Of a stretch of DNA of 52,196 bases, positions 6,553 through 48,827 are shown piece by piece (positions within the stretch are counted from its first letter, which is position 1; every line of letters starts with the position of its first letter). Position numbers and translations under genes: made by a program. Source of the stretch: Candidatus Saganbacteria bacterium CG08_land_8_20_14_0_20_45_16 (lineage in GTDB: Bacteria > Margulisbacteria > WOR-1 > O2-12-FULL-45-9); NCBI GenBank assembly GCA_002774365.1, contig PEYM01000002.1, positions 1 to 52,196 on the forward strand, in the 5' to 3' direction. The notes under the pieces were generated by a model. It was given only the letters and a program-made list of their open reading frames with translations, had not been told where the DNA came from and did not search any database.

Positions 6553-6579
6553 TATCTTCTCTTTCCTTCATAAATTTCA
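6553..6579 (-). promoter_or_regulatory. sigma-28-like motif TGAAATTT-N15-GATA
   Basis: Minus strand reads GTGAAATTT ATGAAGGAAAGAGAA GATATT. Confidence 0.6.
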
Positions 6580-6654
6580 CTTTTAATGCGGCTATTTTTG
6601 TGATATAATAAAGGTTGATCGAGGCCGTATTTTGGGGAGGCAGAGCTAATTTAG

Positions 6655-7908
6655 ATGAAGTTTTCGCAATTGGTGGCGCCAACGCTTCGAGAAGACCCTG
6701 CAGAGGCCGAGATTGTATCCCACAAATTATTACTTCGCGCGGGTTTTATTCGCAAACTGGCTACCGGCGTCTACACTTACTTACCCCTTGGTTTAAAAGT
6801 CTTAAATAATGTTACCCGGGTTGTTCGCGAAGAAATGGACCGTGCTGGAGCCCAAGAAATCTTTATGCCGGTTCTGCAGCCAGCTGAGCTCTGGCAGGAG
6901 ACTGGCCGTTGGAAACAGTATGGTAAAGAACTTTTTCGGATCAAAGACCGACACGAGCGCGATTTTTGCCTGGGCCCAACGCACGAAGAGGTCATTACTG
7001 ACCTAGTTAAAAATTCAATCAATTCATACCGTAGTTTGCCGGTCACTCTTTATCAAATCCAGACCAAATTTCGTGATGAGATCCGCCCGCGTTTTGGCTT
7101 AATGCGCGGCCGTGAATTTATGATGAAGGATGCTTACAGTTTCCACCCTAATGAAGCTGATCTTGACCGTGAATATCAAAATATGCACCAGACCTATTGT
7201 CGGATTTTTGAGCGCTTGGGCCTGAAGTTTAGGGTAGTTGAAGCGGCGGCTGGTTTGATTGGCGGCGGTTATTCCCAAGAGTTTATGGTCTTGGCCGAAA
7301 CAGGCGAAGATGAGATTTTTTGCTGCCAGGCTTGTGATTACGCGGCCAGTCGCGAGTTGCTCGAGGCTAATGTTTGCCCCAAGTGTGGGAGCAGCAAATA
7401 TGAGCTGATCCGCGGGATTGAGGTTGGCCATATTTTTAAGCTCGGCACTAAGTATTCTTCAAAAATGAAGTGTGTTTATGTTGATGAGAACAATCAAGAA
7501 CAGCCAATGGTCATGGGCTGCTACGGGATTGGGGTGGCCAGAACAGCTCAAGCTGCGATTGAGCAGAACCATGATAAAGATGGCATTATTTGGCCCATGC
7601 CCCTAGCGCCTTATAAAATAGCCGTAGTTCCTGTAAACATTGAGGAAACTGAGCAGCGGGAAGTGGCGGAAAAATTGTATAGGGCGATGAGCGGTGAGGG
7701 GGGCGGGGTGAGCGTGCTTTTTGACGATCGAGACAAGCGGATTGGGGCCAAGCTCAAAGATATTGATCTGATTGGGATCCCGATCAAAGTGATTGTTGGT
7801 CCCAAAGGTTTAAAAGAGGGTAAGGTTGAGGTTAAGTGGCGCCGCGACGGCAAAACCGAGCTGGTCGCCAAGGAAAAGGTAGTGGAATGGTTAGCACAAT
7901 CCCTTTAG
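6655..7908 (+). CDS. proS: prolyl-tRNA synthetase (short form without INS editing domain)
   Basis: [58 protein letters not shown] motifs. Confidence 0.97.
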
Positions 7909-9299
7909 ACGATAAACCCAAAGAGGCTTGCGGGGTCTACGGTATTTTTTCTTTTAATGGCGAGCCTTTGGCCAAGTTGGTTTATTACGGGCTTTATGCT
8001 TTGCAGCACCGTGGCCAAGAATCAGCTGGTATTTACACCTCAAATGGCCAACAGCTTCAAGGGAAGGTTGGCATGGGCTTGGTCAACATGATCTTTAATG
8101 AGGAAAACCTTAAAGAGCTCAAAGGCAATATTGCTTTGGGCCATGTTCGCTACTCCACTACGGGTTCTTCGATTCTAGCTAATGCTCAGCCAGTGGTGAT
8201 GACCACCAAATACGGGCCAATTGCCTTGGTTCACAATGGCAATCTTATTAATACCGCGGATTTGCGGGCAGAACTGCCTAACCATAAATGGCAGAGCACA
8301 AATGATACAGAGGTTATTGCCGCCCACATTGCGAACTCCAGCGCACCCAACCTTCAGGCAGCGATCATTGAGACATTAAACAAATGTCGAGGCGCGTTTT
8401 CGCTGGGAATTATGAGCCTAGACACGCTTTTTGCGGTGCGTGATCCGCATGGTATTAGGCCGTTATCTGTTGGCAAGCTCAAAGATGCTTATGTGATTGC
8501 CTCGGAAACCTGCGCGCTTGATGTGGTGGGCGCTGAATTTGTGCGTGATGTATCGGCCGGCGAATTGGTCATTATTAATAAAGATGGCTTGCAGTCCAAG
8601 ACTTGGGCCAGGGGCGTGGACGAGGCTTTGTGTGTTTTTGAGTTTATTTATTTTGCCAGGCCAGACAGTGTGATTAATGGCCGCAGTTTTCATGATGTTA
8701 GGGTTAACTTGGGTAAGTACCTGGCCAAAGAGCAGTCGGTTGACGCTGAAATGGTTATTGCTGTGCCTGATTCTGGCATTCCCGCAGCTATTGGCTTTGC
8801 TAAGGAATCAGGGATTCCTTTTACCGAAGGGTTGATTAAAAACCGCTACATTGGCCGGACTTTTATCCAGCCAACCCAAGCCATGAGGGAAATTGGAGTG
8901 CGTATGAAATTAAACCCGATCAGGGACTCTGTGCGCGGGAAAAAGCTGGTGCTGATCGATGATTCAATTGTCAGAGGCACGACCTCAAGGCAGATCGTCA
9001 GGCTCTTGCGGGAAAATGGGGCCAGGGAAGTCCATGTGCGGGTCTCTTCTCCGCCAATTATGTACCCTTGTTTTTACGGTATTGATACGTCGACCCGGGC
9101 AGAATTGATTGCGGCCAACTTATCGATTGAAGGGATCAGAAAATACATTGAGGCTGATAGCTTAGGTTATTTATCGCTCAGGAGCTTAGCCAAAGCTATT
9201 AACTTGCCTAGGGATCGGTTATGCATGGCGTGTCTTAATGGTGATTATCCAGTGAAGCTGCCAGAGAAATTAGAGAGCTTAAAGTTATTTTTTGAATAA
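7887..9299 (+). CDS. purF: amidophosphoribosyltransferase
   Basis: Propeptide then EA|[23 protein letters not shown] and [12 protein letters not shown] 7887 is the likely start. Confidence 0.97.
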
Positions 9300-9308
9300 G
9301 AAGGGGAG

Positions 9309-9515
9309 GTGAAAAAAATGGAAAATTGCAGTTCTTTCCCAAAATGCACTCAATGTGACAAGGGGCAAATGTTGCCGCTGTCTGATTTTTCCAATAATTC
9401 GGTTGCGATCAGATATAAAGCGTGGGCCTGTACCAACAGGGAGTGCCGTTTCTTTGTTGTCCTTAGAGGTGGAGATGTTTATTACGGTACCGCAACGTCA
9501 GAAGCAGCCAGATAA
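9309..9515 (+). CDS. small putative zinc-ribbon protein
   Basis: CTQC...CTNREC cysteine pairs, SD GGGAGG, position inside the pur operon. Confidence 0.65.
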   Translation: MKKMENCSSFPKCTQCDKGQMLPLSDFSNNSVAIRYKAWACTNRECRFFVVLRGGDVYYGTATSEAAR

Positions 9516-9546
9516 GTTTTAAGTTTAACTAGGAGGGTTGAGAGAT

Positions 9547-10530
9547 ATGGTTACCTATAAGCAGGCTGGGGTAGATGTTGATGCGGGCAATGAGGTGGTC
9601 AAGCGGATTAAAAAATTTGCCAAGGGGATTGGCTTTTTTGGCGGCTTGTATCCGCTGGGCAAAAATTATTTAGTGGGGGCGGCCGATGGGGTGGGAACAA
9701 AACTAAAAATTGCTTTTGCCATGAACCGCCATGATACAGTTGGGATCGATCTGGTGGCTATGAATGTTGATGACGTGGTTGTTTGCGGGGCTAAGCCGCT
9801 CTTTTTTCTTGATTACATTGGGGCGCAAAAGGTCCACCCGCCGCAGATAGAAAAAATTATCAGAGGGATTGCTCTTGGCTGTAAAAAAGCCGAGTGTCAG
9901 CTGCTTGGCGGTGAGACGGCTGAGCTGCCAGACATGTACCGAGATGGTGAGTATGATCTGGCTGGTTTTTGCGTGGGCCTGGTAGAGCGGGACAAGCTGA
10001 TCATGGGAGCTAAGATCAGGAGCGGAGACAAGTTGATTGGCCTGGCCTCTTCTGGGCTGCACAGTAATGGCTATACCTTGGCCCGCAAGGTCTTGCTGGA
10101 AAAATCACGGCTTGACCTTAAGCAATATGTTGATGATCTTGATAAGACCTTGGGCGATGAACTGCTTACCCCGACCAAGATCTATACGCCAGCGATCCTT
10201 AAATTGATCAAACGTTTTAACATTAAAGGCATGGCGCATATTACTGGTGGCGGCCTGCCGGAAAACATTGCTCGGGTGCTGCCAAAAAACGTTCAAGTGG
10301 TGATTGATTTAAATTCCTGGAAACCCCAGACTATCTTTAGGTTGATCCAGCGTTTAGGCAAAGTTTCTCAAGATGAGATGTTCCGCACCTTTAATATGGG
10401 GATTGGCATGGTTGTAGTGGTGGCAGCAAAAGATGTTGATAAGGTCCTGGCTTTTCTCAAAAAACAGGGCGAAAAGGCCTTTATGATCGGTGATATTGAA
10501 CGGGGAAAGCGGGAAGTAATTATTATTTAG
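9547..10530 (+). CDS. purM: phosphoribosylformylglycinamidine cyclo-ligase
   Basis: YKQAGVD, DGVGTK, GGETAE, SSGLHSNG, HITGGG and TFNMGIG motifs. Start is 9547 ATG or 9538 TTG. Confidence 0.97.
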   Translation: MVTYKQAGVDVDAGNEVVKRIKKFAKGIGFFGGLYPLGKNYLVGAADGVGTKLKIAFAMNRHDTVGIDLVAMNVDDVVVCGAKPLFFLDYIGAQKVHPPQIEKIIRGIALGCKKAECQLLGGETAELPDMYRDGEYDLAGFCVGLVERDKLIMGAKIRSGDKLIGLASSGLHSNGYTLARKVLLEKSRLDLKQYVDDLDKTLGDELLTPTKIYTPAILKLIKRFNIKGMAHITGGGLPENIARVLPKNVQVVIDLNSWKPQTIFRLIQRLGKVSQDEMFRTFNMGIGMVVVVAAKDVDKVLAFLKKQGEKAFMIGDIERGKREVIII

Positions 10531-10584
10531 CCCTCACCCCAGACAAGTTGAGTCTTTGCCCCCTCTTCTTTTGGGAGAGGGGTG
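10530..10584. repeat. REP-like palindromic element
   Basis: CCCTCACCCC...CCCCTCTTC-TTTT-GGGAGAGGGG hairpin between purM and purN. Related to 597-614 and 35925-35978. Confidence 0.7.
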
Positions 10585-10602
10585 ATTTGCGAAGTGTAAA
10601 TT

Positions 10603-11181
10603 ATGATAAATATCGGAGTTTTGATCTCTGGCCGTGGTTCTAACTTGCAAGCAATTATTGAGGCTTGTGAGAATGGGGATATTTCAGCCAGGGTAGCTAT
10701 TGTTATTTCTAATAAAGCAGAGGTCTATGGCCTTGAGCGGGCCAGGCAGCGCAATATCCCTACCGCGGTTTTAACTTCAGAAAAGGAAATTGTCCAAGAG
10801 CTAGAAAAATACGAAGTTGAGTTGGTTTGTTTGGCTGGCTACATGAAGATTGTTGGCGCAGCGCTCCTTAAAAAATATTTTGGTAAAATGATTAATATCC
10901 ACCCCTCACTTTTGCCTTCGTTTCCCGGTCTGCACGGTCAAAAGCAAGCGTTGGATTATGGTGTTAAAGTTTCCGGAGTGACTGTTCACTTTGTTGATGA
11001 GGGGTGCGACACTGGCCCGATAATTTTGCAAGCCACGGTTCCTGTCTTAGATGATGACACAGAAGACACTTTATCTGCTAGAATACTTGAGCAAGAACAC
11101 AAGCTTTATCCGCAAACGATTAAGCTGTTTGCACAGGGGAAGCTTCAATTGGTAGGGCGAAAGGTGTGTGTGTCTGCTTGA
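10603..11181 (+). CDS. purN: phosphoribosylglycinamide formyltransferase
   Basis: ISGRGSNLQA, NIHPSLLPSFPG, GVTVHFVDEG.DTGPII. Confidence 0.97.
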   Translation: MINIGVLISGRGSNLQAIIEACENGDISARVAIVISNKAEVYGLERARQRNIPTAVLTSEKEIVQELEKYEVELVCLAGYMKIVGAALLKKYFGKMINIHPSLLPSFPGLHGQKQALDYGVKVSGVTVHFVDEGCDTGPIILQATVPVLDDDTEDTLSARILEQEHKLYPQTIKLFAQGKLQLVGRKVCVSA

Positions 11182-13021
11182 AATATTCAATCAGGCTAGG
11201 GTGTTCTCCGATTATTTTTTCTAATATTAGTTTTGCTTTGGCTTGTCCTTTTGCCAGTCTAGTTTGATCTTCTTCGGTGAAGCCGTAAAAGCTCCCTTTT
11301 TTAACCCATTCTTGTAGTTCTGGATGAAAGAGAGCAGTGAGAGCAGTAGCAAATATTTTTACATCTTCCTCTCTGCTTTCTCTTTTTAAATAAACAATGG
11401 CATTTCTATTTTGTTCTTCGGCTGCCTCTAGGATTTTTAAGGTGACAATTCCTTGGAAGGGATAAGAGAGCCCAGCATCTGTGAGGGTGTTGGTGTATTC
11501 ATAGACATTTTCTAGCGACATGGTTTTGTACATCTGCTGCAAGATGCCAAATTCTGCTAGGTGGTGAGCGTAATTTGATGAGGTCTCTTCATTGCAGATT
11601 CGTTGCAATTTTCCCCCGTCTTTTTCATTAAGAGAGGCGCGCGCCCTTAAGAGATCTGCCAGGAGTACTGCTGCCTCAAGATTGTTCTCTTGAGCCAGCC
11701 GTAAAAGGCGCAAAAATAGTTGATCTGCCAAACCATTAAGATTGTTCTTATAGTAAAGATTTATTTTTCTAAAAATAGCTTTTGTCCTAATGAAATTAAT
11801 CAGATCAGCTGCTGGTAGGGCGTCAATGGCTCGCTGACGCTCGGCGACCTCTAACTGGTAGAGAAAATCAAGCTCAGTATCATTACAGATTGTGGCAATA
11901 GTTGCTTGGTCTTTTTGCTCGATTAGCTCAATCAACCTTTGTTCAACCTTTTTTTTCATCGCGCGCAGCGCCGCAAAATGTGGGGCTTGGGTAGGTTTCC
12001 TTGGCTCATAGTTGTCAATCCAGGCTTTGGTTGCAAAATCATGGAGAGAGCTAGGAAGGACAAATGTCATTGCTTTTGCCAAAAGGCCGGTCTGGGCGCA
12101 GCAGACATACTCAGTAGCTCCGGGTTTTTCAAAAATTAGCTGCCCAAGACTAGCCTGGGCTTCAAGATCACTTTCTTTGGCTAGTGTTAAAAGTCTTTGG
12201 GTGATCTGCTCATCGTGTGGAGATAGCTGCTTTGTGCTGTCAGTAAGGGTGCTAAGGTGAGCTGTTTTTGAATAGGCCAAGAAGGTCTCTTTTGATAGGA
12301 GTGGAATGATTCTTGCCCAGAGCTCTTGATCTTCGCTGGTATTGGTAAAAGGGTTGAGCTGAGAATTGGTCACTATTTCTGCTAAGGCTTCTTGGGCGAC
12401 CGCGTCACCTTCTTCAGCTAAACTTAAGAGCCTTTGGCCAACTGCTTGTTGGAGTTTAGGGATCGAAAATCTTTCCTTCCCAATACGATGTAGCGCTCCT
12501 ACCTCGAGGCTTTTGACCAGCCTAATCACAACATCTTCTGGCAGACTGCTAGCAAGGATGCTGGCCGGGGCTTCAAGCTGGCGGACATATTCTGCCAGCC
12601 CAGCCCTAACTTCACTTTGGTTGCTTTCAGCTAGCTCTAAAATAGTTTCCAAAGATGTTCTGGGCAAATCACCCCTCCCCCTCATTGACCTAATCGTTTC
12701 CATTAGAGCATTTAAAACGTTTCTGATTCCTGCGGCTGGTAGGACAGTCAGGGTATTGGCCAGCACCCCGCATCTTGATAAATGCTCAAGATACTGAATT
12801 GACCATTGTCCGGCCCTCTCGCCCAGTCGTTCCTTGACCTTGGCACTCCCTTCTTCGGCTAGTTTGACCAGGCCTAAGGTTACTAAATCAGTTGGCCAGG
12901 TCAAACTTTCGCTGCGCATTGCTAGCTCGAGCGCTTGCAATTCAGCCAACAGTTTTTTTGGTAAGATCATGGGTCTTTTGTCTTGATCTTTTGGTGGATC
13001 AGAAAGGGCAGAAAGTCTCAC
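11120..13021 (-). CDS. orphan alpha-helical repeat protein (633 aa)
   Basis: Long ORF with recurring LxxLAExxDxxAxxxL units. No family recognised. Confidence 0.7.
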   Translation of the reverse strand: MRLSALSDPPKDQDKRPMILPKKLLAELQALELAMRSESLTWPTDLVTLGLVKLAEEGSAKVKERLGERAGQWSIQYLEHLSRCGVLANTLTVLPAAGIRNVLNALMETIRSMRGRGDLPRTSLETILELAESNQSEVRAGLAEYVRQLEAPASILASSLPEDVVIRLVKSLEVGALHRIGKERFSIPKLQQAVGQRLLSLAEEGDAVAQEALAEIVTNSQLNPFTNTSEDQELWARIIPLLSKETFLAYSKTAHLSTLTDSTKQLSPHDEQITQRLLTLAKESDLEAQASLGQLIFEKPGATEYVCCAQTGLLAKAMTFVLPSSLHDFATKAWIDNYEPRKPTQAPHFAALRAMKKKVEQRLIELIEQKDQATIATICNDTELDFLYQLEVAERQRAIDALPAADLINFIRTKAIFRKINLYYKNNLNGLADQLFLRLLRLAQENNLEAAVLLADLLRARASLNEKDGGKLQRICNEETSSNYAHHLAEFGILQQMYKTMSLENVYEYTNTLTDAGLSYPFQGIVTLKILEAAEEQNRNAIVYLKRESREEDVKIFATALTALFHPELQEWVKKGSFYGFTEEDQTRLAKGQAKAKLILEKIIGEHPSLIEYFKQTHTPFALPIEASPVQTA

Positions 13022-13510
13022 CCTAAAAAGCCTTGATCCTGATGAGTCAAAAAAAGAGTCGAAAGTCGATCGTTTAAAAAGTTTTGCGTGGCTAGGTCAC
13101 CGTCTTCTGCTAAAGTGACCAGCTGTTCAAAAACCTCGTCCAATGAGTGTTTAAGATCATTGCCATTAAAGACAAGGTCATCACGGCTGGCTAAGGCGAA
13201 AAGAGCTTCGAGGCTAAGGAGGCTAAGGAGGCTTAGCACACTTGCTAGCTGGCCACGCTGGCAGAATGATTCCATATCCGTGGCCTTTAATTGAGGGATA
13301 CATTCATCTAGAAAGGTGCGGATTTTTTGGCTGTTGTGGGCAACTGCAATGAGCTTGTGAAAAACTTCTCTCTGCCTTTCATGAGTGGTTAAATGAGCTT
13401 GGTCGATGATCCTTGTTCGGAGTAATCTCGTTTTTAGCCATTGACGTGTTGCTTTGTTTTGCAGCAGTATTTCCAGAGCCTTGGTAGAGCCGCTCTCATA
13501 GATTTGTGCG
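13018..13510 (-). pseudogene. 5'-truncated fragment of the same helical-repeat family
   Basis: Contains LVTLAEDGDLATQNFL. No credible start outside the divergent MNT gene. Its stop overlaps the next ORF (GTGA). Confidence 0.45.
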
Positions 13511-13537
13511 AGAAAAAATATGCTATAATTACCGGAA

Positions 13538-13834
13538 ATGGGAACAAAAGAAATTATAAGTAGAATTAGAAAACATCTTGCTTCCTTGAGAGAAGAATAT
13601 AATGTGGCTAAGATTGGTGTTTTTGGGTCAACGGTTAGAGGAGGGCAGACAACCAAAAGTGACATTGATATCTTAATTGATTTTTCGCGGCCAATTGGTT
13701 TTTTTAAATTTATTCAGCTCGAGAATTTATTGAGCAAAATGCTTAATAAACGCGTAGACCTAGTTTCTCGGAAAGCTCTGAAGCCCGCCATCAAAAGAGG
13801 GATCCTTAAGGAGGTTGTCTTTGTCAATGGTTAG
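13538..13834 (+). CDS. minimal nucleotidyltransferase (MNT) antitoxin
   Basis: FGSTVRG...SDIDILID (GSx10DxD), 98 aa, paired with a HEPN gene. Confidence 0.9.
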   Translation: MGTKEIISRIRKHLASLREEYNVAKIGVFGSTVRGGQTTKSDIDILIDFSRPIGFFKFIQLENLLSKMLNKRVDLVSRKALKPAIKRGILKEVVFVNG

Positions 13835-14174
13835 GGGGACAAAGCTTTATTTTGAGGATATTTTAAGCTCGATCAAGAAAATTGAGAGATATATAAAAAA
13901 TGTTTCACTCTTGACCTTTCAAAAGGATGAAAAAACTATCGATGCGGTAGTTAGAAATCTGGAAATTATCGGAGAAGCTGCTAACAACATTCCTGAAAAA
14001 GTGAAAGCTGAGAGCAAAGATATTCCCTGGCAGCAGATTATCGGTATGCGCAATAAAGTTATCCATGAGTATTTTGGTGTTGATATTGATATGCTTTGGC
14101 AGACCTTAATTGCTGATATCCCTCAGCTTTTAAAGCAGATTAAAGCACTTAAAAAGAATAAATTGTCGTATTAA
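13815..14174 (+). CDS. HEPN / DUF86 RNase toxin
   Basis: DAVVRNLEIIGEAA and IPW..I.GMRNKVIHEYFG (intact Rx4H). The true start may be ATG 13827. Confidence 0.9.
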   Translation: MSLSMVRGTKLYFEDILSSIKKIERYIKNVSLLTFQKDEKTIDAVVRNLEIIGEAANNIPEKVKAESKDIPWQQIIGMRNKVIHEYFGVDIDMLWQTLIADIPQLLKQIKALKKNKLSY

Positions 14175-14195
14175 TTTGGAAAAGAGGTAAAGTAA

Positions 14196-15824: not shown

Positions 15825-15842
15825 AAAAAGGGGGGGGTAATA

Positions 15843-17195: not shown

Positions 17196-17222
17196 TGCTT
17201 AAGTTTTTGTTTGTCTTCACAT

Positions 17223-17249
17223 TGAAATTTTTCTCCCAAGGTGCTGATA
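17223..17249 (+). promoter_or_regulatory. sigma-28-like motif TGAAATTT-N15-GATA
   Basis: TGAAATTT TTCTCCCAAGGTGCT GATAAAT, followed by SD AAGGAGG and ATG 17287. Confidence 0.65.
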
Positions 17250-17286
17250 AATATCTGGCTAGATTTTTTTAAGGAGGGCCAGATTA

Positions 17287-18055
17287 TGAGCAGAGTTGGG
17301 AGTCCCCGTCGTCTGGATGCAACTGCAATTTTTACAATATTTTAAAGTCCAGGTTAGAGCAGTCGCGTTTGAGGGGGGAGAAACAGAAGCGTTTGCCTTA
17401 GCTTTGCTCAGAGATCGGTCGCGGGGGCAGAAGTAGGATTTTCCCAGCTTTTCTCTTTTTGAAATGAAATTGTTTAATGCGGCACGAGAGAAGCTTAGGC
17501 GGAGGTAGCTGTAAGCGCTACACGATGATTTACTTGTCTGTCAATCAACCACTCAGATTACTAAGGTCACCTGAGGCAATAACTAATCAAAAGATGAATA
17601 AAGGGCGAATTCACCCGCGGTTTTTGCGTTTGGACCATCCTTATGTTTCTGCGCAAATTTTATTGCAGTGGGGATTCCCAGAGGAGGTAGTTTTTGTAGT
17701 AGCCCATCATCATGGGAGTGCGGTTTGCCAAGATAAAATAGGAAAAAACGTTGCGGATAACTTGAATGGTTTTGACCTTCGTTATCTCGGCCAGGCTCCG
17801 CCCACCCCAATGGCGGCTTTACTTATGATTGCTGATAAGATTGAGGCTACACTTAATGGTTCACTTTATGGCAATGAATTAACCTCAACGGAGATTGAAG
17901 AGAAAATCACCCTTACCATTTCGGAGGTAATGAGGAGTTTACGTCGAGAGAAACAACTGGTTAATAGCGGACTCACTTTCCATGATCTAGAAGAGGTTGA
18001 AACAGCCTTTAAAAATGAATTGCTCCGTTTACACTCTTTACCTCGGCTGGCTTGA
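17287..18055 (+). pseudogene. disrupted HD-domain phosphohydrolase gene (PgpH/YqfF-like C-terminus)
   Basis: ORF 17477-18055 has HHHG...LRYLGQAP..PMAALLMIADKIEA...QL..SGLT. The SD-associated ATG 17287 reads only 19 codons, and no HD dyad is seen in frame. Confidence 0.6.
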
Positions 18056-18062
18056 CCGGTGG

Positions 18063-18089
18063 TGAAATTTTCCCCATGGTATTGTGATA
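18063..18089 (+). promoter_or_regulatory. sigma-28-like motif TGAAATTT-N15-GATA
   Basis: TGAAATTT TCCCCATGGTATTGT GATAAAT, ending 10 nt before ATG 18100. Confidence 0.65.
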
Positions 18090-18099: not shown

Positions 18100-18927
18100 A
18101 TGCCAATTGTTTTTAGGGAAGTAACCCTATATCAGCCGCGTTATCCAATTGTAGATGCACATTCCCACGGGTTTGAGCATGAAAAACATTTTGTTGAGAT
18201 GGCCAATCGATATGTCTCGCCCAGGGAGACCTTGCCCCTTTTTGGTGATGCTAGTGTCCAAGCCGCCAATGATACTATGGTGCGAGTGGGTATTTATTTG
18301 AGGATTCTTAAAAATCTGGCAGCTAAACCAACCTCTGTGCCAGCAGCTAATGACTTTGCCTTGAGGGTTGATTTGCAGTATCCAAACTTGGCGCCAACAG
18401 GGACCATCTATCTGGACTATGAACACAATGAAGCCGAGGTTGAGTGCCTGGCTGAGGCTGGGATCCGGGGGATTGCGTTAGATTCATGCTGGCAAGGATT
18501 TCACGTAAATGATCGAAGATTGGCTGATGTTTATCGCAAGATCTCTGCCTATCGCATGTTTGTTCTGATGCACGCCGGAGTTGATTCAAACGCCCCTCCC
18601 CGTGATGTTGAAACTTGGCCTGATCAAGTACTGGGAGCCAAGGATATGTTGCCTGACTCAATTGTAATTGCGGCCCACTTGGGGGCCAATATGAACCTTA
18701 AGCTAGCCAAAAACTATCGGGGAGTACAAGGTATCCTGCTTGACTTGGCCTGGCTGATGGAGTGCTGCCAAGGTTATGGCGTTTATTCAGTAATTACTTG
18801 GGAGGAGATTGCTGAAACTATTGACGTGGTTGGACCTGGAATGGTTATTTATTCCTCTGATTATCCGTGGGGTGACCCTGGCGCGCAGATAAGATTTTGG
18901 GAAGAGCACTTGCCAGACGAGGCTTGA
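18100..18927 (+). CDS. amidohydrolase_2-family metal-dependent hydrolase (probably C-terminally truncated)
   Basis: DAHSH, MHAG, IAAHLG and YSSDYPW motifs. Confidence 0.8.
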   Translation: MPIVFREVTLYQPRYPIVDAHSHGFEHEKHFVEMANRYVSPRETLPLFGDASVQAANDTMVRVGIYLRILKNLAAKPTSVPAANDFALRVDLQYPNLAPTGTIYLDYEHNEAEVECLAEAGIRGIALDSCWQGFHVNDRRLADVYRKISAYRMFVLMHAGVDSNAPPRDVETWPDQVLGAKDMLPDSIVIAAHLGANMNLKLAKNYRGVQGILLDLAWLMECCQGYGVYSVITWEEIAETIDVVGPGMVIYSSDYPWGDPGAQIRFWEEHLPDEA

Positions 18928-24783: not shown

Positions 24784-24810
24784 TGAAATTTTTTGTCTTT
24801 TTGTCTGATA
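24784..24810 (+). promoter_or_regulatory. sigma-28-like motif TGAAATTT-N15-GATA
   Basis: TGAAATTT TTTGTCTTTTTGTCT GATAGAT upstream of orphan 24936. Confidence 0.6.
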
Positions 24811-24935
24811 GATCATATAGAGAGTTCCAAAAAATTTGATTTTCTTTGCTTGTCGACGAGACGTCGAGCCTGAGAGGCTTGGCTACGCGGGCAAAAGGCC
24901 AATTATTCTGAGCTTTCGTATAGAGGAGATAAAGC

Positions 24936-25709
24936 ATGACACTAGGCGATACCAGAAACATTACCAGTTCATATCAGCAGCAAGTAGCTGGTTTAGAGCG
25001 ATTAGCCCACCAAGCTAAAGCCCTGGGAATTCTAAGACAGGCACAGGCGGTTTTAGCCCCTCCCAGTATGACTCCAATTTTTACTGGTTTTTTTTCACTC
25101 AGGATCAAAAAAGTTGACCTTGCTGGTTTTCTTACAGGGTTGGAGAGCACTAGGATTTCGCTGGCGCTAGCTGATCGGGCCTTACTGGATATAACTGAAC
25201 TGTTTAGACGTTTGAGTAATGGGCCAGATTCAAGAGATCAGATACTTGCTGAGCTTGATTTTGGCGAGTTTTTGGTCGAACTGAGTAATGGTTCTACTGT
25301 GGCCGAACTCCTGTTGCAAGATTGGCAAGTTGAGCTTAAAGCTCCTTTTTTAGGGAGACCCCTTTTGTCTTACTCGAGTGCTGAGAATGTAACCATCGAG
25401 ACATTGTTAGGTGATGATATATTAGGTTTAGACAAGAGTGATCCGGTTGCTAGGGTTGATCTATCCTGGCCATATCCTTGTTTTGTGGCCCAATATCTTA
25501 TCCCAGATGTTCTAGGGGCTAAGGCTGTTAAGCGTTATGGGCCAAACAAAGTGACTGGGCTCCAATCAGCCAGAGATGTATTTATTAGGGCTAATACTTT
25601 AGGATTATCTTTTTTTCTTGAGACTTTTGAGGTGTTCGGTCGTTTGTTAAGTGCTTTGCTGAGACAGTGCCTTGAGATAAAACTAGGTGTACCGAAAAAG
25701 AGCGTTTAG
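24936..25709 (+). CDS. orphan hypothetical protein (257 aa)
   Basis: SD GAGGAG, fills an intergenic gap, motif upstream. Confidence 0.7.
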   Translation: MTLGDTRNITSSYQQQVAGLERLAHQAKALGILRQAQAVLAPPSMTPIFTGFFSLRIKKVDLAGFLTGLESTRISLALADRALLDITELFRRLSNGPDSRDQILAELDFGEFLVELSNGSTVAELLLQDWQVELKAPFLGRPLLSYSSAENVTIETLLGDDILGLDKSDPVARVDLSWPYPCFVAQYLIPDVLGAKAVKRYGPNKVTGLQSARDVFIRANTLGLSFFLETFEVFGRLLSALLRQCLEIKLGVPKKSV

Positions 25710-38298: not shown

Positions 38299-38333
38299 AA
38301 CCAGCTGGTTTAGATTCCCTAAGCCAGCTGGTT
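38299..38333. terminator. hairpin between convergent genes (likely bidirectional terminator)
   Basis: AACCAGCTGGTTTAG-ATTCC-CTAAGCCAGCTGGTT, a 15-bp stem with one G:U pair. Confidence 0.7.
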
Positions 38334-38340
38334 TGATGTT

Positions 38341-39888: not shown

Positions 39889-39895
39889 TATTGCT

Positions 39896-42492: not shown

Positions 42493-43573
42493 TTATTTCC
42501 TCTGTGATTTTAGCGGCTGCGCCAGCTGCTCCCATGGTGGCTAGCAGCTCAGCAGACATCTTTTCCCTCTTTGGTTTATCTTTTAACAGAGCAATAACCT
42601 TATTAGCTACCTCTTGCGGATCTATTACACCTCGTATCTCTTCAACAATCTCCTGGTCTGCCTTGATATTAGGCAAAGCAAAAAAGCGGGTTTGTTTGTT
42701 CATTATCTCGGCAAACTTCTTTTTAAGCCTGATCCCAAAATAGGGGATTTTGGAAATATAGTGGGCAATCCCCTCAAGCGGGATAACGTCTATGTTGTCC
42801 AGCGGGAAAACCACCAGCATCGGGATCCCCCTGGCGGCTAGTCTGGCAGTATTTGTGCCTGGAATAGTAATAACCAGTTCTGAATTATGCGCTTCTTCAA
42901 ACGAGATCATCTTTGCCTCTGGAATTTCTATTGCCTTCTCAAATGGCGAATCAACAATTTGACATTTGACATTTTTAATTTGACATTTGATCTCTTGAAT
43001 TATTTTGGTATAGATCGGGGTAGTGTGCTTGATTTGCCAGGCACGGCTCCCAGGCATAAAAGTGATGACGTTTTCTTCCGGCTGCCATTTGGGCATGCTT
43101 GAGACTGAATCAACCATTAAATTGCCGACAATTTCCAGTTTGTCTTTGAGTAAACTGCGGCGGTCAAGCTTTTGTTGTGACTGAATGTCCGGGCAAAAGA
43201 ACTTTTTGTAAAAACCAACCCAGCCAATGTAATCCTGGACATAGGCGTAGGCCGGATATTTTAGTTTCTTAGCGATTAGAACGGCGTGGGCCAGGTCGCC
43301 GCCCAAAAAAAGAACTGTTCCCTGGCTGGAAAAATCAATTTTCGGCTTTTGGTTCTTGAGGATCCAGCTTTTGTATTCTTTTTGGGTAATGGTTTGGGTA
43401 ATACCCTTAATGGTCCTGATATATTCCAGCTCTTTGCCGCTGGTGTATTGGCAGGGGGTAAGGACTAGAAATATCCGTCTAGTAGGGTTCTGGGCATATA
43501 TTGTTTCAGCCACAGGCTTGGCTAAGGCTGAAAGTTCTCCAGGGCTATTAACGACGATAACAATATCAGGCAT
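42476..43573 (-). CDS. lipid-A-disaccharide synthase-like protein (LpxB-type)
   Basis: NSPGE, FLGGD, VGNLMVD, MPGSR, PGTNTA and ALPNI motifs. In-frame TTTGACA array at 42958-42992. Confidence 0.75.
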   Translation of the reverse strand: MPDIVIVVNSPGELSALAKPVAETIYAQNPTRRIFLVLTPCQYTSGKELEYIRTIKGITQTITQKEYKSWILKNQKPKIDFSSQGTVLFLGGDLAHAVLIAKKLKYPAYAYVQDYIGWVGFYKKFFCPDIQSQQKLDRRSLLKDKLEIVGNLMVDSVSSMPKWQPEENVITFMPGSRAWQIKHTTPIYTKIIQEIKCQIKNVKCQIVDSPFEKAIEIPEAKMISFEEAHNSELVITIPGTNTARLAARGIPMLVVFPLDNIDVIPLEGIAHYISKIPYFGIRLKKKFAEIMNKQTRFFALPNIKADQEIVEEIRGVIDPQEVANKVIALLKDKPKREKMSAELLATMGAAGAAAKITEEINEIIR

Positions 43574-43595
43574 AGCTTTTATTATATCGAAAAAC

Positions 43596-43626
43596 TGAAA
43601 TTTTAGCCAATAGCTAACGAGATAAA
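43596..43626 (+). promoter_or_regulatory. variant sigma-28-like motif TGAAATTT-N15-GAGATAAA
   Basis: Directly before ATG 43633. Confidence 0.45.
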
Positions 43627-43632
43627 GTTACA

Positions 43633-44226
43633 ATGCACAGGATAGTTAATTATAACCGACCTATTTTTGATCGAGGTTTGTCTAGTTGGCAAGCTCGTTT
43701 TAAAGGTTCTAGCAATCCACCTTTAGTGAGTTTGCGTAGGAGAAAGGCCGAGGTTGCTTCTTTTTTAAGAGCTATTCAAAACTATCGCCGAATGCCGATT
43801 GGAGCAGGAAAGTTTACTTCTGGGGTCAAGGGTGATTATAAGGTAAAAGCAAATGAACGTTTTGCGTTTATGGGGTATTTTGAATTCTTGACCGCGAAGG
43901 TTTATGCGTCTTGCCCCAAGTCCAAGCCCAATCCCATAAATGCGGAAATTAATCTTATTTTTTCCAAAGTGTTCGAGCTAATGGACGGCTTGCAAAAAAC
44001 AGTCTTTGATAAAGTCCTGCTGGATGTTTTCCTACTTGGATATGTGCTAGGAACTGACTCGACTAAACTTGATCGAGCCAGCGAGGAATACAGAGCTTTT
44101 GCTGCTAAAATGGACCCTGTTTGCCAAAAGCATAGTTGGGAGACGATCAGGGTGATGAAGCAAATTGATCACGAGCTTGACCGATTGCTTGCTTTGTTTG
44201 GTTTGACTGTTGATTCGAAGTTCTAA
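43633..44226 (+). CDS. orphan hypothetical protein (197 aa)
   Basis: Fills the gap between the LpxB-like gene and thrC on the opposite strand. Basic N-terminus, helical C-terminus. Confidence 0.65.
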   Translation: MHRIVNYNRPIFDRGLSSWQARFKGSSNPPLVSLRRRKAEVASFLRAIQNYRRMPIGAGKFTSGVKGDYKVKANERFAFMGYFEFLTAKVYASCPKSKPNPINAEINLIFSKVFELMDGLQKTVFDKVLLDVFLLGYVLGTDSTKLDRASEEYRAFAAKMDPVCQKHSWETIRVMKQIDHELDRLLALFGLTVDSKF

Positions 44227-45272
44227 TAGTCTAGTCTTTTTGCTACTTCAGCTGCCTTGCAGGGGATACGAGTTGGCTTTTCCCCATATTTAATAGCATT
44301 GTCAGGATCTTTTAAGCCGTGGCCAGTTAAAACACAAACCACAGTTGCGCCAACAGAAACTTTACCTGCTTTGACAGATTTTAGAAGTCCGGCCACAGAC
44401 GCAGCCGAGGCTGGTTCGCAGAAGATACCTTCTTTGGCGGCGATCATTTTGTATGCTTCAATAATTTCCTTGTCAGAGACCATATCAATAAAACCGCCAG
44501 AGTCTTGGGCCGCGGCTTCGGCCTGTTTCCAGCTCGCAGGATTGCCGATCCTAATCGCGGTGGCTAGTGTTTCCGGCTTTTCAATAATATGGCCGCGGAC
44601 AATTGGGGCGGCACCTTCAGCCTGAAAACCAATCATCTTGGGCAATTTATTGATCTTGCCTGCCTTTTTGTATTCAGTATAACCCTTCCAATAAGCCGTG
44701 ATGTTGCCGGCATTGCCAACTGGGATAGCGTGAAAGTCAGGCACTGCCTCAAGTTGATTGCAAATTTCAAAAGCCCCTGTTTTTTGCCCCTCAATTCTGA
44801 ATGGATTGATTGAGTTAACAATTTCAACTGGATATTTTTTCCCCATTTCACGAACAAGCTCGAGGGCTTGATCGAAATTACCATCAACCTCAAAAACCTT
44901 GGCCCCGTGCAGAATCGCTTGCGAAAGTTTGCCCAGGGCGATCTTACCCTTGGGAATAATGACAATGCAATCCATTCCAGCGCGAACAGAATAAGCCGCA
45001 GCCGAGGCCGAGGTGTTACCTGTAGAGGCGCAAATCACTGCCTTGCAACCTTTTTCCGCGGCTTTGGAAATTGCCAGGCACATCCCACGATCCTTGAATG
45101 AACCAGTTGGGTTGGCTCCTTCGTATTTAAGATAAACTTGGCAGTTAGTCAGCTTGGAAAGATGTTCAGCTGGGAGTAGTGGGGTGTTCCCCTCATAAAA
45201 AGTAACAATGGGGGTCTTTTCAGTAACAGGGAGATATTCTTGGTACTCTTTGACAACGCCTTGCCAATGCAT
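44223..45272 (-). CDS. thrC: threonine synthase
   Basis: NPTGSFKDRG, ASTGNTSAS, PVGNAGN and LTGHGLKD motifs. Confidence 0.96.
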   Translation of the reverse strand: MHWQGVVKEYQEYLPVTEKTPIVTFYEGNTPLLPAEHLSKLTNCQVYLKYEGANPTGSFKDRGMCLAISKAAEKGCKAVICASTGNTSASAAAYSVRAGMDCIVIIPKGKIALGKLSQAILHGAKVFEVDGNFDQALELVREMGKKYPVEIVNSINPFRIEGQKTGAFEICNQLEAVPDFHAIPVGNAGNITAYWKGYTEYKKAGKINKLPKMIGFQAEGAAPIVRGHIIEKPETLATAIRIGNPASWKQAEAAAQDSGGFIDMVSDKEIIEAYKMIAAKEGIFCEPASAASVAGLLKSVKAGKVSVGATVVCVLTGHGLKDPDNAIKYGEKPTRIPCKAAEVAKRLDY

Positions 45273-45301
45273 GGGGCAATTATAACATGAGGAATAAAAC
45301 T

Positions 45302-45778
45302 CTAAAAGCGAATATCTTTAGGGATTGGGATTTGGCCGGTAGCCTTGAGCGGGGCCGTAAGACCAAGTTCTAACAATTTAATCTCCAGTGTCCCTTCGAT
45401 CTGGTAAGTAAGCTCTTTTCCGCCTTTGGCCAAGGCGGCAAGAACTCCTAAGCTGGTGCCAAACAATTTATCATAGCTGATCATTACTGGGATGGTAATA
45501 ATTTTTTTGCTGTTAGCAGGGATATTAAAGCCGGGTTTAGTTTCGCTAATAAATTCCTGGTCATTGATAAATATCTTATATTGGTATTTGGTCAGGTCTA
45601 TGGCGAGTGAGTTGGGGTTTTCAACGGAAAAAAGAAAAGACAGCTCAAGTCCTTGCCGTGTGACCTTGCTAAGGTTATAGTTAATAAAATCCACCTTGGG
45701 TGGTTGTGGCTCAAAGCAACCGATCAAAGAAAGCCCAATAAAAGCCAACAGAAAAATGAGGAGCATTTTTTTGATCAT
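45302..45778 (-). CDS. LEA_2/WHy-domain lipoprotein
   Basis: Lipobox LIGC and V.NPN motif. ATG 45778 is preferred as the start. Confidence 0.8.
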   Translation of the reverse strand: MIKKMLLIFLLAFIGLSLIGCFEPQPPKVDFINYNLSKVTRQGLELSFLFSVENPNSLAIDLTKYQYKIFINDQEFISETKPGFNIPANSKKIITIPVMISYDKLFGTSLGVLAALAKGGKELTYQIEGTLEIKLLELGLTAPLKATGQIPIPKDIRF

Positions 45779-45866
45779 GCCATTGAATATAACAAATCTA
45801 GCTGGGAGATGCAAGAATAGCTAGCCTTGCCTGGAAAACCTGGGCTGCTCGTGATAAAATAAAACT

Positions 45867-48698
45867 ATGGAGTATAAAAAGACTTTAAACCTGCCGCAAA
45901 CCGACTTTCCTATCCGGGCTAAACTAGCTGAAATCGAAGCGGAAATGACAGCTTTTTGGGCCAAGCAAGATGTTTATCATCAAATGGGGAAGAGATTCGA
46001 CCTTCGAAATTCGAAAGCCGATAGTCGTTATATTCTCCATGATGGCCCACCATATCCCAACGGAGATATTCACCTGGGCCACGCGCTCAACAAAATCCTC
46101 AAAGATATAATTGTTAAGTATAAATCTATGCAAGGGTTTTATGCTCCTTATGTTCCTGGTTGGGACTGCCACGGTTTACCCATTGAAACTCAGTTGATTA
46201 AAGACTTAGGTGAGGACGAGAGAAATAAATTTCGAGAGCCTGCTCACAAAGTTGAATTTCGGAAAAGATGCAAAGAGTACGCCCTAAAATATGTTGATTT
46301 GCAAAGGACGGAATTTAAGCGCTTGGGGATTTTTGGCGAATGGGACAAGCCGTATTTAACAATTAATTATGAATATGAAGCTAAAATTATTGAGCTTTTC
46401 GGGGTCTTAGCTGAAAAGGGTTATATCTATCGCGGGTTAAAGCCAATCCATTGGTGTCCGCATTGTGAGACAGCTTTAGCCGAGGCTGAGATTGAGTATG
46501 AGGATGATAAGTCGCCGTCGATTTTTGTCAGATTTAAGGTTTCAAGGGACCAGGGTACCAAGGGATCAAAGGACTGGATGCCTCGAAACCTTGATCCCTC
46601 GATGCCTCTTTCTTTAGTGATTTGGACCACAACACCATGGACCTTGCCGGCTAATGTGGCGATTGCTGCTCATCCGGAATATGAATATGTTTTTTTAAAA
46701 TCCGAAATCCTAAATCCTAAATCCGAACAAGGAGAGGTATATATTATTGCCGAGGGGTTGGTTGAGGAGTTTGTTAAGAAATTAGAGCTTAAGGAATATA
46801 AAATTATTGGCAAGATGTCAGGAAAAAATCTTGAAGGGGTCAAATACCAGCACCCCTTTATTGAGCGCGAAGGTCAGGTGGTACTTGATACTTATGTCAC
46901 GCTAGAACAGGGGACAGGCTTGGTCCACATTGCGCCAGGACATGGGATGGAAGACTACGGGGTCGGCTTAAAATACAAGCTTCCAATTGTGATGCCGGTT
47001 AATGCCATGGGGCATTTTGACAGCTCGGTCCCAGATTTTATCCAGGGGAAATTTTATGCTGGCGCTAATAAAATCATTACTGAAAAAATGCAGCAAGATG
47101 GCTCGCTTTTAAAGCTTGAATTCATGAAGCATTCATACCCACATTGCTGGCGTTGCAAAAAACCAGTGATCTTCCGCGCGACCGAGCAGTGGTTTGTTTC
47201 AGTGGACCATAATAATATGCGTGGAGAAGCGCTCAAGGCTATTGGTCACACTAAGTGGTTTCCGGCCTGGGGGGAGAACAGAATTCGTGGGATGGTTGAA
47301 GGTCGGCCTGACTGGTGTATTTCGCGTCAGCGCAGTTGGGGGGTGCCGATCCCTGTTTTCTATTGCCAAAAATGCCAGAAACCACACATGACTGGTGAGT
47401 TTAATCAGGCAATTATTAAATTAGTTAAAGAACACGGGACTAATGGTTGGTTTGCCAAAGAGGTCAAAGATATCTTGCCGGCCAATCTTAAATGCGATTG
47501 CGGCGGCACTGAATTTACCAAAGAAACAGATATTCTTGATGTCTGGTTTGAGTCTGGTTCGTCTCATGCGGCCGTGCTGGAGCAAAGAGCCGATCTTAGC
47601 TGGCCAGCTGATCTATATCTTGAAGGCTCTGACCAACATCGTGGCTGGTTTCAAACTTCGCTCTTGCTTGGTATTGGTTATAAAGGCAAGGCCCCATTTA
47701 AGGCGGTCTTAACCCACGGGTTTACAGTTGATGATAAGGGCAAGAAAATGAGCAAGTCTTTGGGCAATGTGATTTCGCCTCAGGAAGTTGTTAAGGAGTA
47801 TGGGGCGGATATTTTGCGGCTGTGGGTTGCCTCGACTGATTTCCGCAATGATATGGCGGCCTCGCAAAATATCTTAAAACAAGTGCGCGAGGCGTATCTT
47901 AAGATTCGTAATACTTGTCGGTTTCTTTTGAGTAATTTGGGGGATTTTAATTGCGAGCCACGAGCCACGAGCCACGAGTTACTAGAGATCGACAGATGGA
48001 TCTTGTTAAAGCTTAATCGTTTGATTGAGCTGGTAACTAAGGCTTATGATAGCTTTGAATTTCATGTTGTCTATCACTCGCTCTATGATTTTTGTGTTAA
48101 TGACTTGTCAGCTTTTTATCTAGATATGTCTAAAGACAGGCTTTATTGCGATGCTAAGGATGCGGTCTCTCGCACGTCTGCGCAATTTGCCATGCGAGAA
48201 ATCCTGATGGCGTTGATTAAGTTGATGTCGCCGGTACTTTCGTTTACAGCTGAGGATATTTATAAGTATGTAACCAGTAACCAGTTACCTGTAACCAGTG
48301 TGTTTTTGCTTGATTTTCCAAAAGTTGACAAGAAGTACCTTGATGAGCAGCTAGAGGCAAAGTGGGAAAAGATTTTAAAGCTAAGGGAAGAGGTTTATCA
48401 ATTAATTGAAAAGAAGCGGGCGGCCAAGGAAATTTCTGCTTCAGTTGAGGCTTTGGTTGAAATTGGGACAGAGGGCCGAGAGTGGCTAAAAGAGGTTGAG
48501 GCATTTTTGCCTATGGTCTTGATTGTTTCTCAGGTCAAACTTGTGGCAGGCAAGCAAATTGTGGTCAAACATGCTGATGGAAAAAAATGCGTTCGCTGTT
48601 GGCTCTGGAGTGAAACAGTTGGCCAAAACTCTAGTCACCCTGAGCTGTGTCAAAGATGTGCTAAGGTGGTCATGACTAAATTCGGGGATCAAGTATAG
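45867..48698 (+). CDS. ileS: isoleucyl-tRNA synthetase
   Basis: HDGPPY, HLGH, WTTTPWT, KMSKS and C-terminal CVRC...CQRC zinc finger. Confidence 0.98.
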   Translation: MEYKKTLNLPQTDFPIRAKLAEIEAEMTAFWAKQDVYHQMGKRFDLRNSKADSRYILHDGPPYPNGDIHLGHALNKILKDIIVKYKSMQGFYAPYVPGWDCHGLPIETQLIKDLGEDERNKFREPAHKVEFRKRCKEYALKYVDLQRTEFKRLGIFGEWDKPYLTINYEYEAKIIELFGVLAEKGYIYRGLKPIHWCPHCETALAEAEIEYEDDKSPSIFVRFKVSRDQGTKGSKDWMPRNLDPSMPLSLVIWTTTPWTLPANVAIAAHPEYEYVFLKSEILNPKSEQGEVYIIAEGLVEEFVKKLELKEYKIIGKMSGKNLEGVKYQHPFIEREGQVVLDTYVTLEQGTGLVHIAPGHGMEDYGVGLKYKLPIVMPVNAMGHFDSSVPDFIQGKFYAGANKIITEKMQQDGSLLKLEFMKHSYPHCWRCKKPVIFRATEQWFVSVDHNNMRGEALKAIGHTKWFPAWGENRIRGMVEGRPDWCISRQRSWGVPIPVFYCQKCQKPHMTGEFNQAIIKLVKEHGTNGWFAKEVKDILPANLKCDCGGTEFTKETDILDVWFESGSSHAAVLEQRADLSWPADLYLEGSDQHRGWFQTSLLLGIGYKGKAPFKAVLTHGFTVDDKGKKMSKSLGNVISPQEVVKEYGADILRLWVASTDFRNDMAASQNILKQVREAYLKIRNTCRFLLSNLGDFNCEPRATSHELLEIDRWILLKLNRLIELVTKAYDSFEFHVVYHSLYDFCVNDLSAFYLDMSKDRLYCDAKDAVSRTSAQFAMREILMALIKLMSPVLSFTAEDIYKYVTSNQLPVTSVFLLDFPKVDKKYLDEQLEAKWEKILKLREEVYQLIEKKRAAKEISASVEALVEIGTEGREWLKEVEAFLPMVLIVSQVKLVAGKQIVVKHADGKKCVRCWLWSETVGQNSSHPELCQRCAKVVMTKFGDQV
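45996..48297. repeat. five separate in-frame 7/8-nt tandem arrays within ileS
   Basis: TTCGAAA (45996-46023), CAAGGGAC plus inverted CCTCGATG (46543-46608), AAATCCT (46698-46725), CGAGCCA (47954-47981), GTAACCA (48270-48297). Confidence 0.85.
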
Positions 48699-48800
48699 AA
48701 TTAACTGTTTTAAGCTAGTAAAGAAATAATTGGCTGTTGTCTTCCAGTTAAACAGGGCTTGAGCTCTTTCGCTTAGATTTTTATTGATTTTCACATATTA

Positions 48801-48827
48801 TTATCGCCATGGTTTTGGGAAATTTCA
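48801..48827 (-). promoter_or_regulatory. sigma-28-like motif TGAAATTT-N11-GGCGATAA
   Basis: Minus strand reads TGAAATTT CCCAAAACCAT GGCGATAA, followed by GTG 48794. Confidence 0.6.

Follow-up and report, generated by a model that had tools for sequence, protein, structure and literature searches.

A sigma-28-like two-block motif upstream of lineage-specific genes and rpoD in Candidatus Saganbacteria

Does a pair of short words that recurs in front of orphan genes mark a regulon, and which sigma factor would read it? The question is raised by contig PEYM01000002.1 (C7) of the assembly of Candidatus Saganbacteria bacterium CG08_land_8_20_14_0_20_45_16 (here G000), a 1.78-Mb draft in 148 contigs with 44.7% G+C that is rated 95% complete. 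In the 52,196 nucleotides of this contig that were analysed (positions 1 to 52,196, hereafter the window), the octamer TGAAATTT is followed at several places by GATA at a distance of 14 or 15 nt, and the initial annotation took these pairs for sigma-28-like promoters. We found that the motif precedes about 130 mostly lineage-specific genes as well as rpoD, the gene of the housekeeping sigma factor. We consider it probable (roughly three chances in four) that RNA polymerase with a FliA-family sigma factor reads the motif, starts transcription 7–8 nt downstream and controls about 130 transcription units. The motif statistics, the sigma-28 register of the two blocks and the presence of FliA/WhiG-like genes all support the sigma-28-like interpretation.

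The motif in the window, the genome and the class

The pattern TGAAATTT-N14/15-GATA has five matches in the window against 0.04 expected, and none of 100 dinucleotide-preserving shuffles reached five. The octamer by itself occurs eight times against 7.7 expected and is therefore not enriched; what stands out is the pairing of the two blocks at a constant distance. The four N15 sites and the one N14 site listed by the initial annotation are present exactly where it had placed them, and the variant that it reported at 43596 reads TGAAATTT-N15-GAGATAAA. As it had also observed, all six sites are intergenic, each faces an open reading frame (ORF), and the gap between GATA and the start codon is only about 7–10 nt at the 18063, 43596 and 48827 sites. 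Searches with Rfam (gathering thresholds) and ARAGORN found no known RNA gene in the window to which the motif could belong.

Across the whole genome, the exact N14/15 pattern occurs 92 times. When the spacer was varied from N10 to N19, N15 gave 86 matches and each other length gave 0–6, and GATA lies exactly 15 nt from the octamer in 86 of the 277 copies of TGAAATTT. A 45-nt matrix was then built by iteration, with an order-2 Markov simulation of the genome as the control. A threshold of 14 bits gave 140 sites versus 7 in the simulation, and one of 18 bits gave 132 versus 0. The consensus is aaaaa-G-TGAAATTT-(t/c)(t/c)-N12-C-G-A-T-A-w-A-T-A-T-n-T-(A/G)-G, with information peaks at the octamer and at C-G-A-T-A. 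Among the 140 sites there are 132 distinct 14-nt spacers, which indicates that the sites are independent and are not copies of a repeat; a repeat-element origin for the sites as a whole was rejected on this ground. Genes were mapped as crude greedy ORFs of at least 80 aa (1651 ORFs covering 92.4% of the genome). On this map, 115 of the 140 sites fall outside ORFs, though only 7.6% of the genome is non-ORF; of the remainder, 11 are at most 60 nt from an ORF start that is over-extended, and 14 are located further inside an ORF. Nearly all of the 140 sites face a downstream ORF. The enrichment and the intergenic placement first noted in the window hold for the genome.

The six window sites, scored with the genome-wide matrix, are as follows.

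6553..6579, minus strand: promoter-like site, TGAAATTT-N15-GATA, 25.5 bits, predicted start near 6545; target ORF 5970-6524 (184 aa, no Pfam family), with a leader of about 21 nt that contains GGAAGGAG.
17223..17249, plus strand: promoter-like site, 27.3 bits, -10 block GCTGATAAAT; followed by AAGGAGGG, a 19-codon ORF (17286-17345) and an HD-domain ORF (17477-18055, weak Pfam match).
18063..18089, plus strand: promoter-like site, 19.1 bits, TGTGATAAAT; target Amidohydro_2 ORF 18100-18927, with its ATG 10 nt past GATA.
24784..24810, plus strand: promoter-like site, 24.9 bits, TCTGATAGAT; a leader of about 118 nt (24817-24925) with a degenerate GAGAG...CTCTC palindromic element, then ORF 24936-25709 (257 aa, no Pfam family).
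43596..43624, plus strand: strongest site of the window, 33.9 bits, -10 block read as CGAGATAAAG; target ORF 43633-44226 (197 aa, no Pfam family), with its ATG about 3 nt past the predicted start.
48802..48827, minus strand: N14-spaced variant and weakest of the six, with a good -10 block, GGCGATAATAAT; target ORF 48486-48794 (102 aa, no Pfam family), with its GTG 7 nt past GATA.

The last of these sites falls below the 14-bit threshold of the matrix, which is in the N15 register, and it stands on weaker statistics because the N14 spacing has six matches in the genome, which is the background level. Its target ORF overlaps the 3' end of a convergent 943-aa gene. The 19-codon ORF behind the 17223 site has a strong AAGGAGGG ribosome-binding site and ends well ahead of the HD-domain ORF, which starts 130 nt beyond; it could encode a leader peptide or a small protein.

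We placed the predicted transcription start at motif position +34, 7–8 nt past CGATAA, where 124 of 140 sites have A or G. Of the 123 sites scoring at least 22 bits, 92 have an ORF of at least 60 aa within 400 nt, and for these we measured how far the start codon lies from the predicted start. It was 0–5 nt at 20 sites, 6–20 nt at 23, 21–50 nt at 22, 51–100 nt at 14, 101–200 nt at 11 and more than 200 nt at 2. These leader lengths agree, indirectly, with a start 7–8 nt past the -10 block. The group at 0–5 nt predicts leaderless or nearly leaderless mRNAs, including those of the window genes at 18100 and 43633, and a gap of this size leaves no space for a separate promoter. At 18100-18927, the mRNA is predicted to be almost without a leader because the ATG follows GATA so closely.

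The motif is not confined to this genome. The exact N15 form was found in all 30 relatives of the same order (12–114 copies per genome; reversed-pattern control, 0–1) and in all 64 other genomes of the class (5–207, mostly 20–130; control, 0–2). Genomes from other classes of the phylum mostly contained 0–20 copies and occasionally 30–53 (control, 0–4). Conservation is seen directly at one orthologous locus, that of rpoD. In 29 of 30 class loci, the 400 nt upstream of rpoD contain a same-strand matrix site of at least 12 bits, usually 37–67 nt before the first Met, and both blocks are kept at these loci while the spacer and flanks have diverged. The sole rpoD locus without a site is L096, in genome G145. 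Thus, rpoD is a conserved target of the motif.

Promoter class and candidate sigma factors

Five proteins of the sigma-70 family were identified in the genome and are listed below with the contigs that distinguish them.

RpoD, contig C67, 350 aa: best match to RpoD models, motif upstream, present in 31 of 31 genomes (30 of the class plus G000).
C91 sigma, contig C91, 18969-19697, minus strand, 243 aa: matches TIGR02479 (FliA_WhiG) over its whole length, 134.7 bits.
C34 sigma, contig C34, 196 aa: best match to FliA in region 4, 82.6 bits (TIGR02479).
C127 sigmas, contig C127, 4862-7075, minus strand: two divergent RpoD/RpoS-like sigmas in tandem, with altered region 2.4.

The best solved relatives of the C91 sigma are WhiG and FliA structures. 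Its gene is followed on the same strand by matches to Flg_bb_rod (18860-18907 and 18566-18652) and FliF (17196-17708). Orthologues with 58–76% identity occur in 57 of 64 other class genomes, and identity outside the class does not exceed 38%. The C34 sigma gene lies 23 kb from flhA in G000; in 28 of 40 relatives, as read from coordinates, its counterpart shares the strand of flhA and is found no more than 1 kb downstream of it. C34-type sigmas were found in 63 of 64 class genomes (in G007 and G030 only as contig-end fragments), and most other genomes of the phylum have one match each at 31–40% identity. The group-3 sigma factor that the initial annotation had expected is thus represented by two FliA/WhiG-like genes, accompanied by a flagellar-type export cluster. 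Because both are class-wide, their distribution does not discriminate between the C91 and C34 sigmas as readers of the motif.

The enterobacterial sigma-28 consensus is TAAAGTTT-N11-GCCGATAA. Its class 3 promoters share with our motif an 8-nt -35 block that ends in TTT, a CGATAA core, a stringent, information-rich consensus and, once (T/G)AAA is aligned, the same spacing. They differ in that the AT-rich TATAT tract 3' of the -10 block is a feature of the Saganbacteria sites, whose targets are not flagellin, motor or chemotaxis genes. More generally, the motif has the two-block architecture of a (T)TAAA-like -35 element and a CGATA(A) -10 element at a fixed distance of about 15–16 nt. The FliA motif mapped in Bdellovibrio is given as TTAAG-N16-CCGATA (PMC3627812), and its register matches, with GATA 23 nt past the first T in both.

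In the mechanism that we favour, TGAAATTT, placed after an A-tract and a G, would serve as the -35 element, with CGATA(w)A as its -10 partner. Transcription would begin about 7–8 nt past CGATAA, at the conserved T-A/G-G near motif position +34, often at or adjoining the start codon. The reader would be polymerase with either the C91 or the C34 protein, both class-wide FliA-family sigmas linked to flagellar clusters, and about 130 such promoters would be read in the 1.78-Mb genome. The role of a FliA-type sigma, the choice between the two proteins and the position of the start site are what we infer from these data.

Ordinary sigma-70 promoters form a separate class in front of motif-less genes. 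In 400 upstream regions of motif-less genes with an intergenic gap of at least 80 nt, TTGAC.-N16-18-TA.AAT occurred in 15, versus 0.15 in shuffled sequence and 3 on the opposite strand, and TGnTATAAT occurred in 35, versus 2.2 and 12, respectively. These explicit patterns were needed, as hexamer enrichment in motif-less upstream regions returned mostly ribosome-binding sites and GC-rich words and no promoter boxes.

With this class in hand, the motif could be viewed as a strong but unusual variant of the RpoD (sigma-70) promoter, in which TGAAAT is the -35-like element, GATAAT or GATATA the -10-like element and the A-tract an UP element. The sequence xTGAAA does resemble TTGACA, GATAAT resembles TATAAT, the two are about 17–18 nt apart, and an A-rich tract lies 5' of the -35 block; the site before rpoD itself in nearly every class locus would also fit RpoD autoregulation. 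However, the sites fit a sigma-70 element poorly in detail. At the base before TGAAA, which would be the first of the -35 element, 120 of 140 sites have G or C and only 12 have T, and TGAAA is followed by a TTT of about 97% conservation, for which a sigma-70 -35 element offers no explanation. Of the 140 sites, 136 have G at the would-be -12 base; at the would-be -7 base, 100 have A and 36 have T. RpoD, moreover, retains the E. coli-like segments WWIRQAITR and TRERIRQ, which we take to function in promoter recognition, and the canonical boxes described above stand before other genes. We therefore regard an RpoD variant as unlikely. A transcription-factor binding site or the end of a mobile repeat, neither being a promoter itself, is a poorer candidate still, and we consider it very improbable. 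A few promoter-plus-leader cassettes recur almost identically, some of them at contig ends, for 15 of 140 sites a contig end is no more than 200 nt away, and a palindromic repeat stands 3' of 13 of 140. Against this, all but a few of the spacers are mutually unrelated, the blocks are asymmetric and always oriented toward the downstream gene, and orthologous rpoD loci have retained the site despite diverged flanks and spacers. Furthermore, in 43 of 92 cases the predicted start is 0–20 nt from the start codon, which leaves no space for another promoter. The tandem C127 proteins are, as extra sigma-70-family members with an altered region 2.4, formally available as readers, and the chance that one of them fills this role is minimal. 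Neither has a relative at E <= 1e-20 in 40 other class genomes, all of them motif-rich, so these G000-specific proteins cannot account for a class-wide motif and were rejected.

Several observations weigh against a FliA-type reader. The scores of the C91 and C34 sigmas are under the NCBIfam cut-off of TIGR02479, which is 189.6. No matrix site of at least 12 bits was found near the C91-type sigma gene in nine related loci, nor was any site found near either FliA-like sigma gene in G000, so the autoregulation that is common for fliA is not seen. No matrix site of at least 16 bits lies inside the flagellar clusters, and the targets typical of sigma-28 were not detected: the Pfam models Flagellin_N, MCPsignal, MotA_ExbB and FlgM (PF04316) found no match in the 95%-complete genome. 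The "GC" of the GCCGATAA consensus is not conserved in the motif. A conserved rpoD target is unusual for sigma-28, and RpoD autoregulation would also account for it. Finally, start codons and leader lengths are approximate because the gene map consists of crude greedy ORFs.

Some features of the sites and sigma genes stand apart from this argument. Divergent back-to-back promoter pairs with a common A/T-rich core occur at C20:31327(-)/31360(+) and C132:5760(-)/5784(+), and tandem pairs precede single large ORFs at C44:12547/12439 and C140:19237/19353. At 19 of 140 sites, CGAAA replaces CGATA in the -10 block, often followed by CTAAGTTA instead of TATATAT (for example, C13:30006, C135:6623 and C121:59063); the CGATA and CGAAA variants might correspond to the two FliA-like sigmas. 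Each C127 sigma has a long C-terminal extension with a second region-4-like segment.

Genes downstream of the motif

The approximately 130 promoters correspond to roughly 8% of the 1651 mapped ORFs. To characterize their targets, the 40 highest-scoring downstream ORFs outside the window, from 76 candidates, were searched against Pfam (E <= 0.001) together with 20 random motif-less genes drawn from 522 with an upstream gap of at least 50 nt. A Pfam family was matched by 14 of the 40 regulon ORFs (12 above curated cut-offs) and by 14 of the 20 controls (Fisher p = 0.014). The families matched in the regulon were PKD, Radical_SAM, Peptidase_A8, HD, Pkinase (twice), Ig_Rha78A_N, DDE_Tnp_1, Peptidase_M16, PPDK_N, DUF4116 and RelA_SpoT. 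For two window targets, ORFs 43633-44226 and 18100-18927, a search of 40 other class genomes, only two of which are of the same family, returned no homologue at E <= 1e-5. The former retrieved only itself among about 5.8 billion proteins of similar length. ORF 24936-25709 has no usable relative in the ESM Atlas, where its stored model has a predicted local distance difference test score (pLDDT) of 0.33. The enrichment for orphans proposed in the initial annotation is therefore borne out by the Pfam comparison and by these two window targets.

The N-termini of the encoded proteins are distinctive as well. We compared 78 regulon proteins with 1199 control ORFs. A hydrophobic 15-mer was present within the first 35 residues of 2 regulon proteins versus 266 controls (p = 2e-6), and within the first 70 residues of 6 versus 315. 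In residues 2–31, Arg (1.82-fold), Pro (1.61-fold) and Ser (1.41-fold) were enriched in the regulon, and Met, Phe, Glu and Lys were depleted. The initial annotation had described the orphans as lacking Sec signals and as having Arg/Ile/Pro-rich N-termini; the lack of a hydrophobic segment and the excess of Arg and Pro were upheld, and Ile, at 0.83-fold, was not. The G+C content at third codon positions (GC3) was lower in regulon genes (0.39 vs. 0.46), and four small paralogue groups were present among the regulon proteins. The scarcity of Pfam matches, homologues and hydrophobic N-termini points to a regulon enriched for young or lineage-specific proteins without signal peptides.

Conserved genes belong to the regulon too, above all rpoD. 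The claim that the motif does not stand before core genes is correct for the window; genome-wide, the motif is carried by rpoD and by PPDK-like, RelA/SpoT-domain and LspA-domain genes. A regulon restricted to orphans is accordingly not what we found.

Ser/Thr kinase domains were seen among the regulon proteins at C50:8474-9562, C29:2189-3010 and C12:5021-5924. Two are confirmed by Pfam, and the third candidate, recognized by eye only, has a kinase-like glycine loop at a contig end.

Flagellar-type genes, related systems and recurring elements

The flagellar-type genes of G000 lie in two clusters. The cluster on contig C34 encodes FliK-like, FlgE/F/G-like, FliM/FliN, FliP, FliR, FlhB and FlhA proteins, and that on contig C91 contains the sigma gene, two rod-protein matches and FliF. 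FliG_C, like the families named above, was not found in G000, and no flagellar family appeared among the 40 regulon proteins scanned against Pfam. Across 41 class genomes including G000, FHIPEP was found in 39, FliG_C in 4 and flagellin in 1; the absences are by Pfam model in draft genomes, two of which are single-contig. Judged by these models, the gene set comprises a putative flagellar export gate with basal-body parts, filament and motor genes being undetected. In the genomes with FliG_C (G125, G127, G130 and G131), the exact motif was counted 5, 24, 7 and 7 times, which hints at a smaller regulon in genomes with more of the flagellar motor left. This is a lead only, since the four genomes are interrelated and other low-count genomes are without FliG. 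Two genes stand directly 3' of flhA (C34:29309-33511; L115 12110-16312). The product of one, at 773 aa, has a match to a BNR/YCF48-like repeat, and that of the other, at 624 aa, carries S-layer homology domains.

Late export substrates are the usual targets of sigma-28. Since the regulon proteins are without Sec-type N-termini and rich in Arg, Pro and Ser, they may be read as cargo: the flagellum of Saganbacteria could have shrunk to a type III export machine lacking filament and motor, with its cargo driven by a former late-gene sigma-28 circuit that has grown to about 130 promoters and also feeds back on rpoD. This proposal is speculative, and we hold it to be rather doubtful. The cargo would be a fast-evolving set of mostly orphan proteins without signal peptides and rich in Arg, Pro and Ser, with Ser/Thr kinases, PKD-repeat giants and coiled-coil membrane proteins among them. 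The whole would amount to a secretion or cell-interaction programme that a free-living candidate phylum has derived from the class 3 regulation of flagella. The life-stage or effector role suggested by the initial annotation is likewise conjectural.

Chlamydial sigma-28 is a non-flagellar late-gene sigma factor with a small regulon, in a lineage without flagella. It resembles the case described here in that a sigma-28-family factor is used for non-flagellar genes, and it differs in that Saganbacteria has about 130 promoters and retains partial flagellar basal-body genes. A close parallel is the FliA attack-phase regulon of Bdellovibrio bacteriovorus (Karunker et al. 2013, PMC3627812). According to that report, the motif was found at 92 of 140 mapped promoters, many of the genes were non-flagellar or uncharacterized, with some small RNAs, and FliA had been recruited as a global regulator. 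The likeness extends to the FliA-type two-block motif, its register and the non-flagellar targets. Bdellovibrio, however, is flagellated, its FliA still drives flagellar genes and its start sites were mapped experimentally, whereas the regulon described here is known from sequence alone. In G000, unlike in Bdellovibrio, searches detected no flagellin, methyl-accepting chemotaxis protein (MCP), MotA or FliG; two FliA-family sigmas are encoded, the -35 block reads TGAAATTT, and rpoD is a conserved target. Retention of flagellar type III export without flagella has been described for Buchnera and Lysobacter enzymogenes OH11 (PMC7688988). As in those bacteria, FlhA, FlhB, FliP, FliR, FliF, rod/hook proteins and FliM/N are present here without flagellin. 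The part of that source available to us reports no tie to an expanded sigma-28 regulon, and in Saganbacteria export itself is putative.

Sigma-28 promoters are known as a kind of element, as is a global FliA regulon, that of Bdellovibrio. We found no earlier description of the motif in the Saganbacteria/Margulisbacteria literature on sigma factors, promoters and flagella, for which the sources were mostly titles and the beginnings of abstracts. What is new is the setting, namely an uncultivated candidate phylum with no flagellin or motor gene by the models used, two FliA-family sigmas and rpoD as a conserved target. A conserved promoter of the alternative-sigma type in front of the gene for the housekeeping sigma, a partial flagellar export apparatus and a large, fast-turnover set of family-less proteins are rarely combined, and a sigma-28-type circuit would have outlived flagellin in the class. 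If a FliA-type sigma is confirmed as the reader, this would be a second independent case of FliA as a global regulator after Bdellovibrio and, as far as we searched, the first without flagellin. For a lineage that is sister to Cyanobacteria and uncultivated, a single 27-nt rule, valid in all 64 other class genomes searched, predicts about 130 transcription units per genome and provides a testable regulatory map. The motif could also be used to pick candidate export substrates or cell-surface effectors from metagenomes.

Two kinds of recurring elements accompany some of the sites. Palindromic elements of 100–170 nt, with the 5' start GAGAGCTCCGAA and the 3' end TTCGGAGCTCTC, occur on contigs such as C135, C109, C134, C14, C67 and C107; where they follow a promoter, they do so directly, at the predicted start. 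A loose 15-nt word for their 5' end has 30 matches in the genome, at least one of which (in a window ORF) marks no element. Full copies fold into one long hairpin of -48 to -68 kcal/mol (z -3.8 to -7.5 against mononucleotide shuffles), and the degenerate copy in the leader of the 24784 site folds no better than shuffles (z = -0.40). The element could be a 5'-terminal mRNA stabilizer or a repeat resembling miniature inverted-repeat transposable elements that inserts at the TATA tract. In addition, a promoter-plus-leader cassette with the spacer TTGCCAAAATATGC and the leader end TTTTTCGGAGCTCTC is nearly identical before different genes, often at contig ends (contigs C12, C26, C33, C94, C120, C126, C146 and C147), and some promoter copies may have spread within a mobile or duplicated unit.

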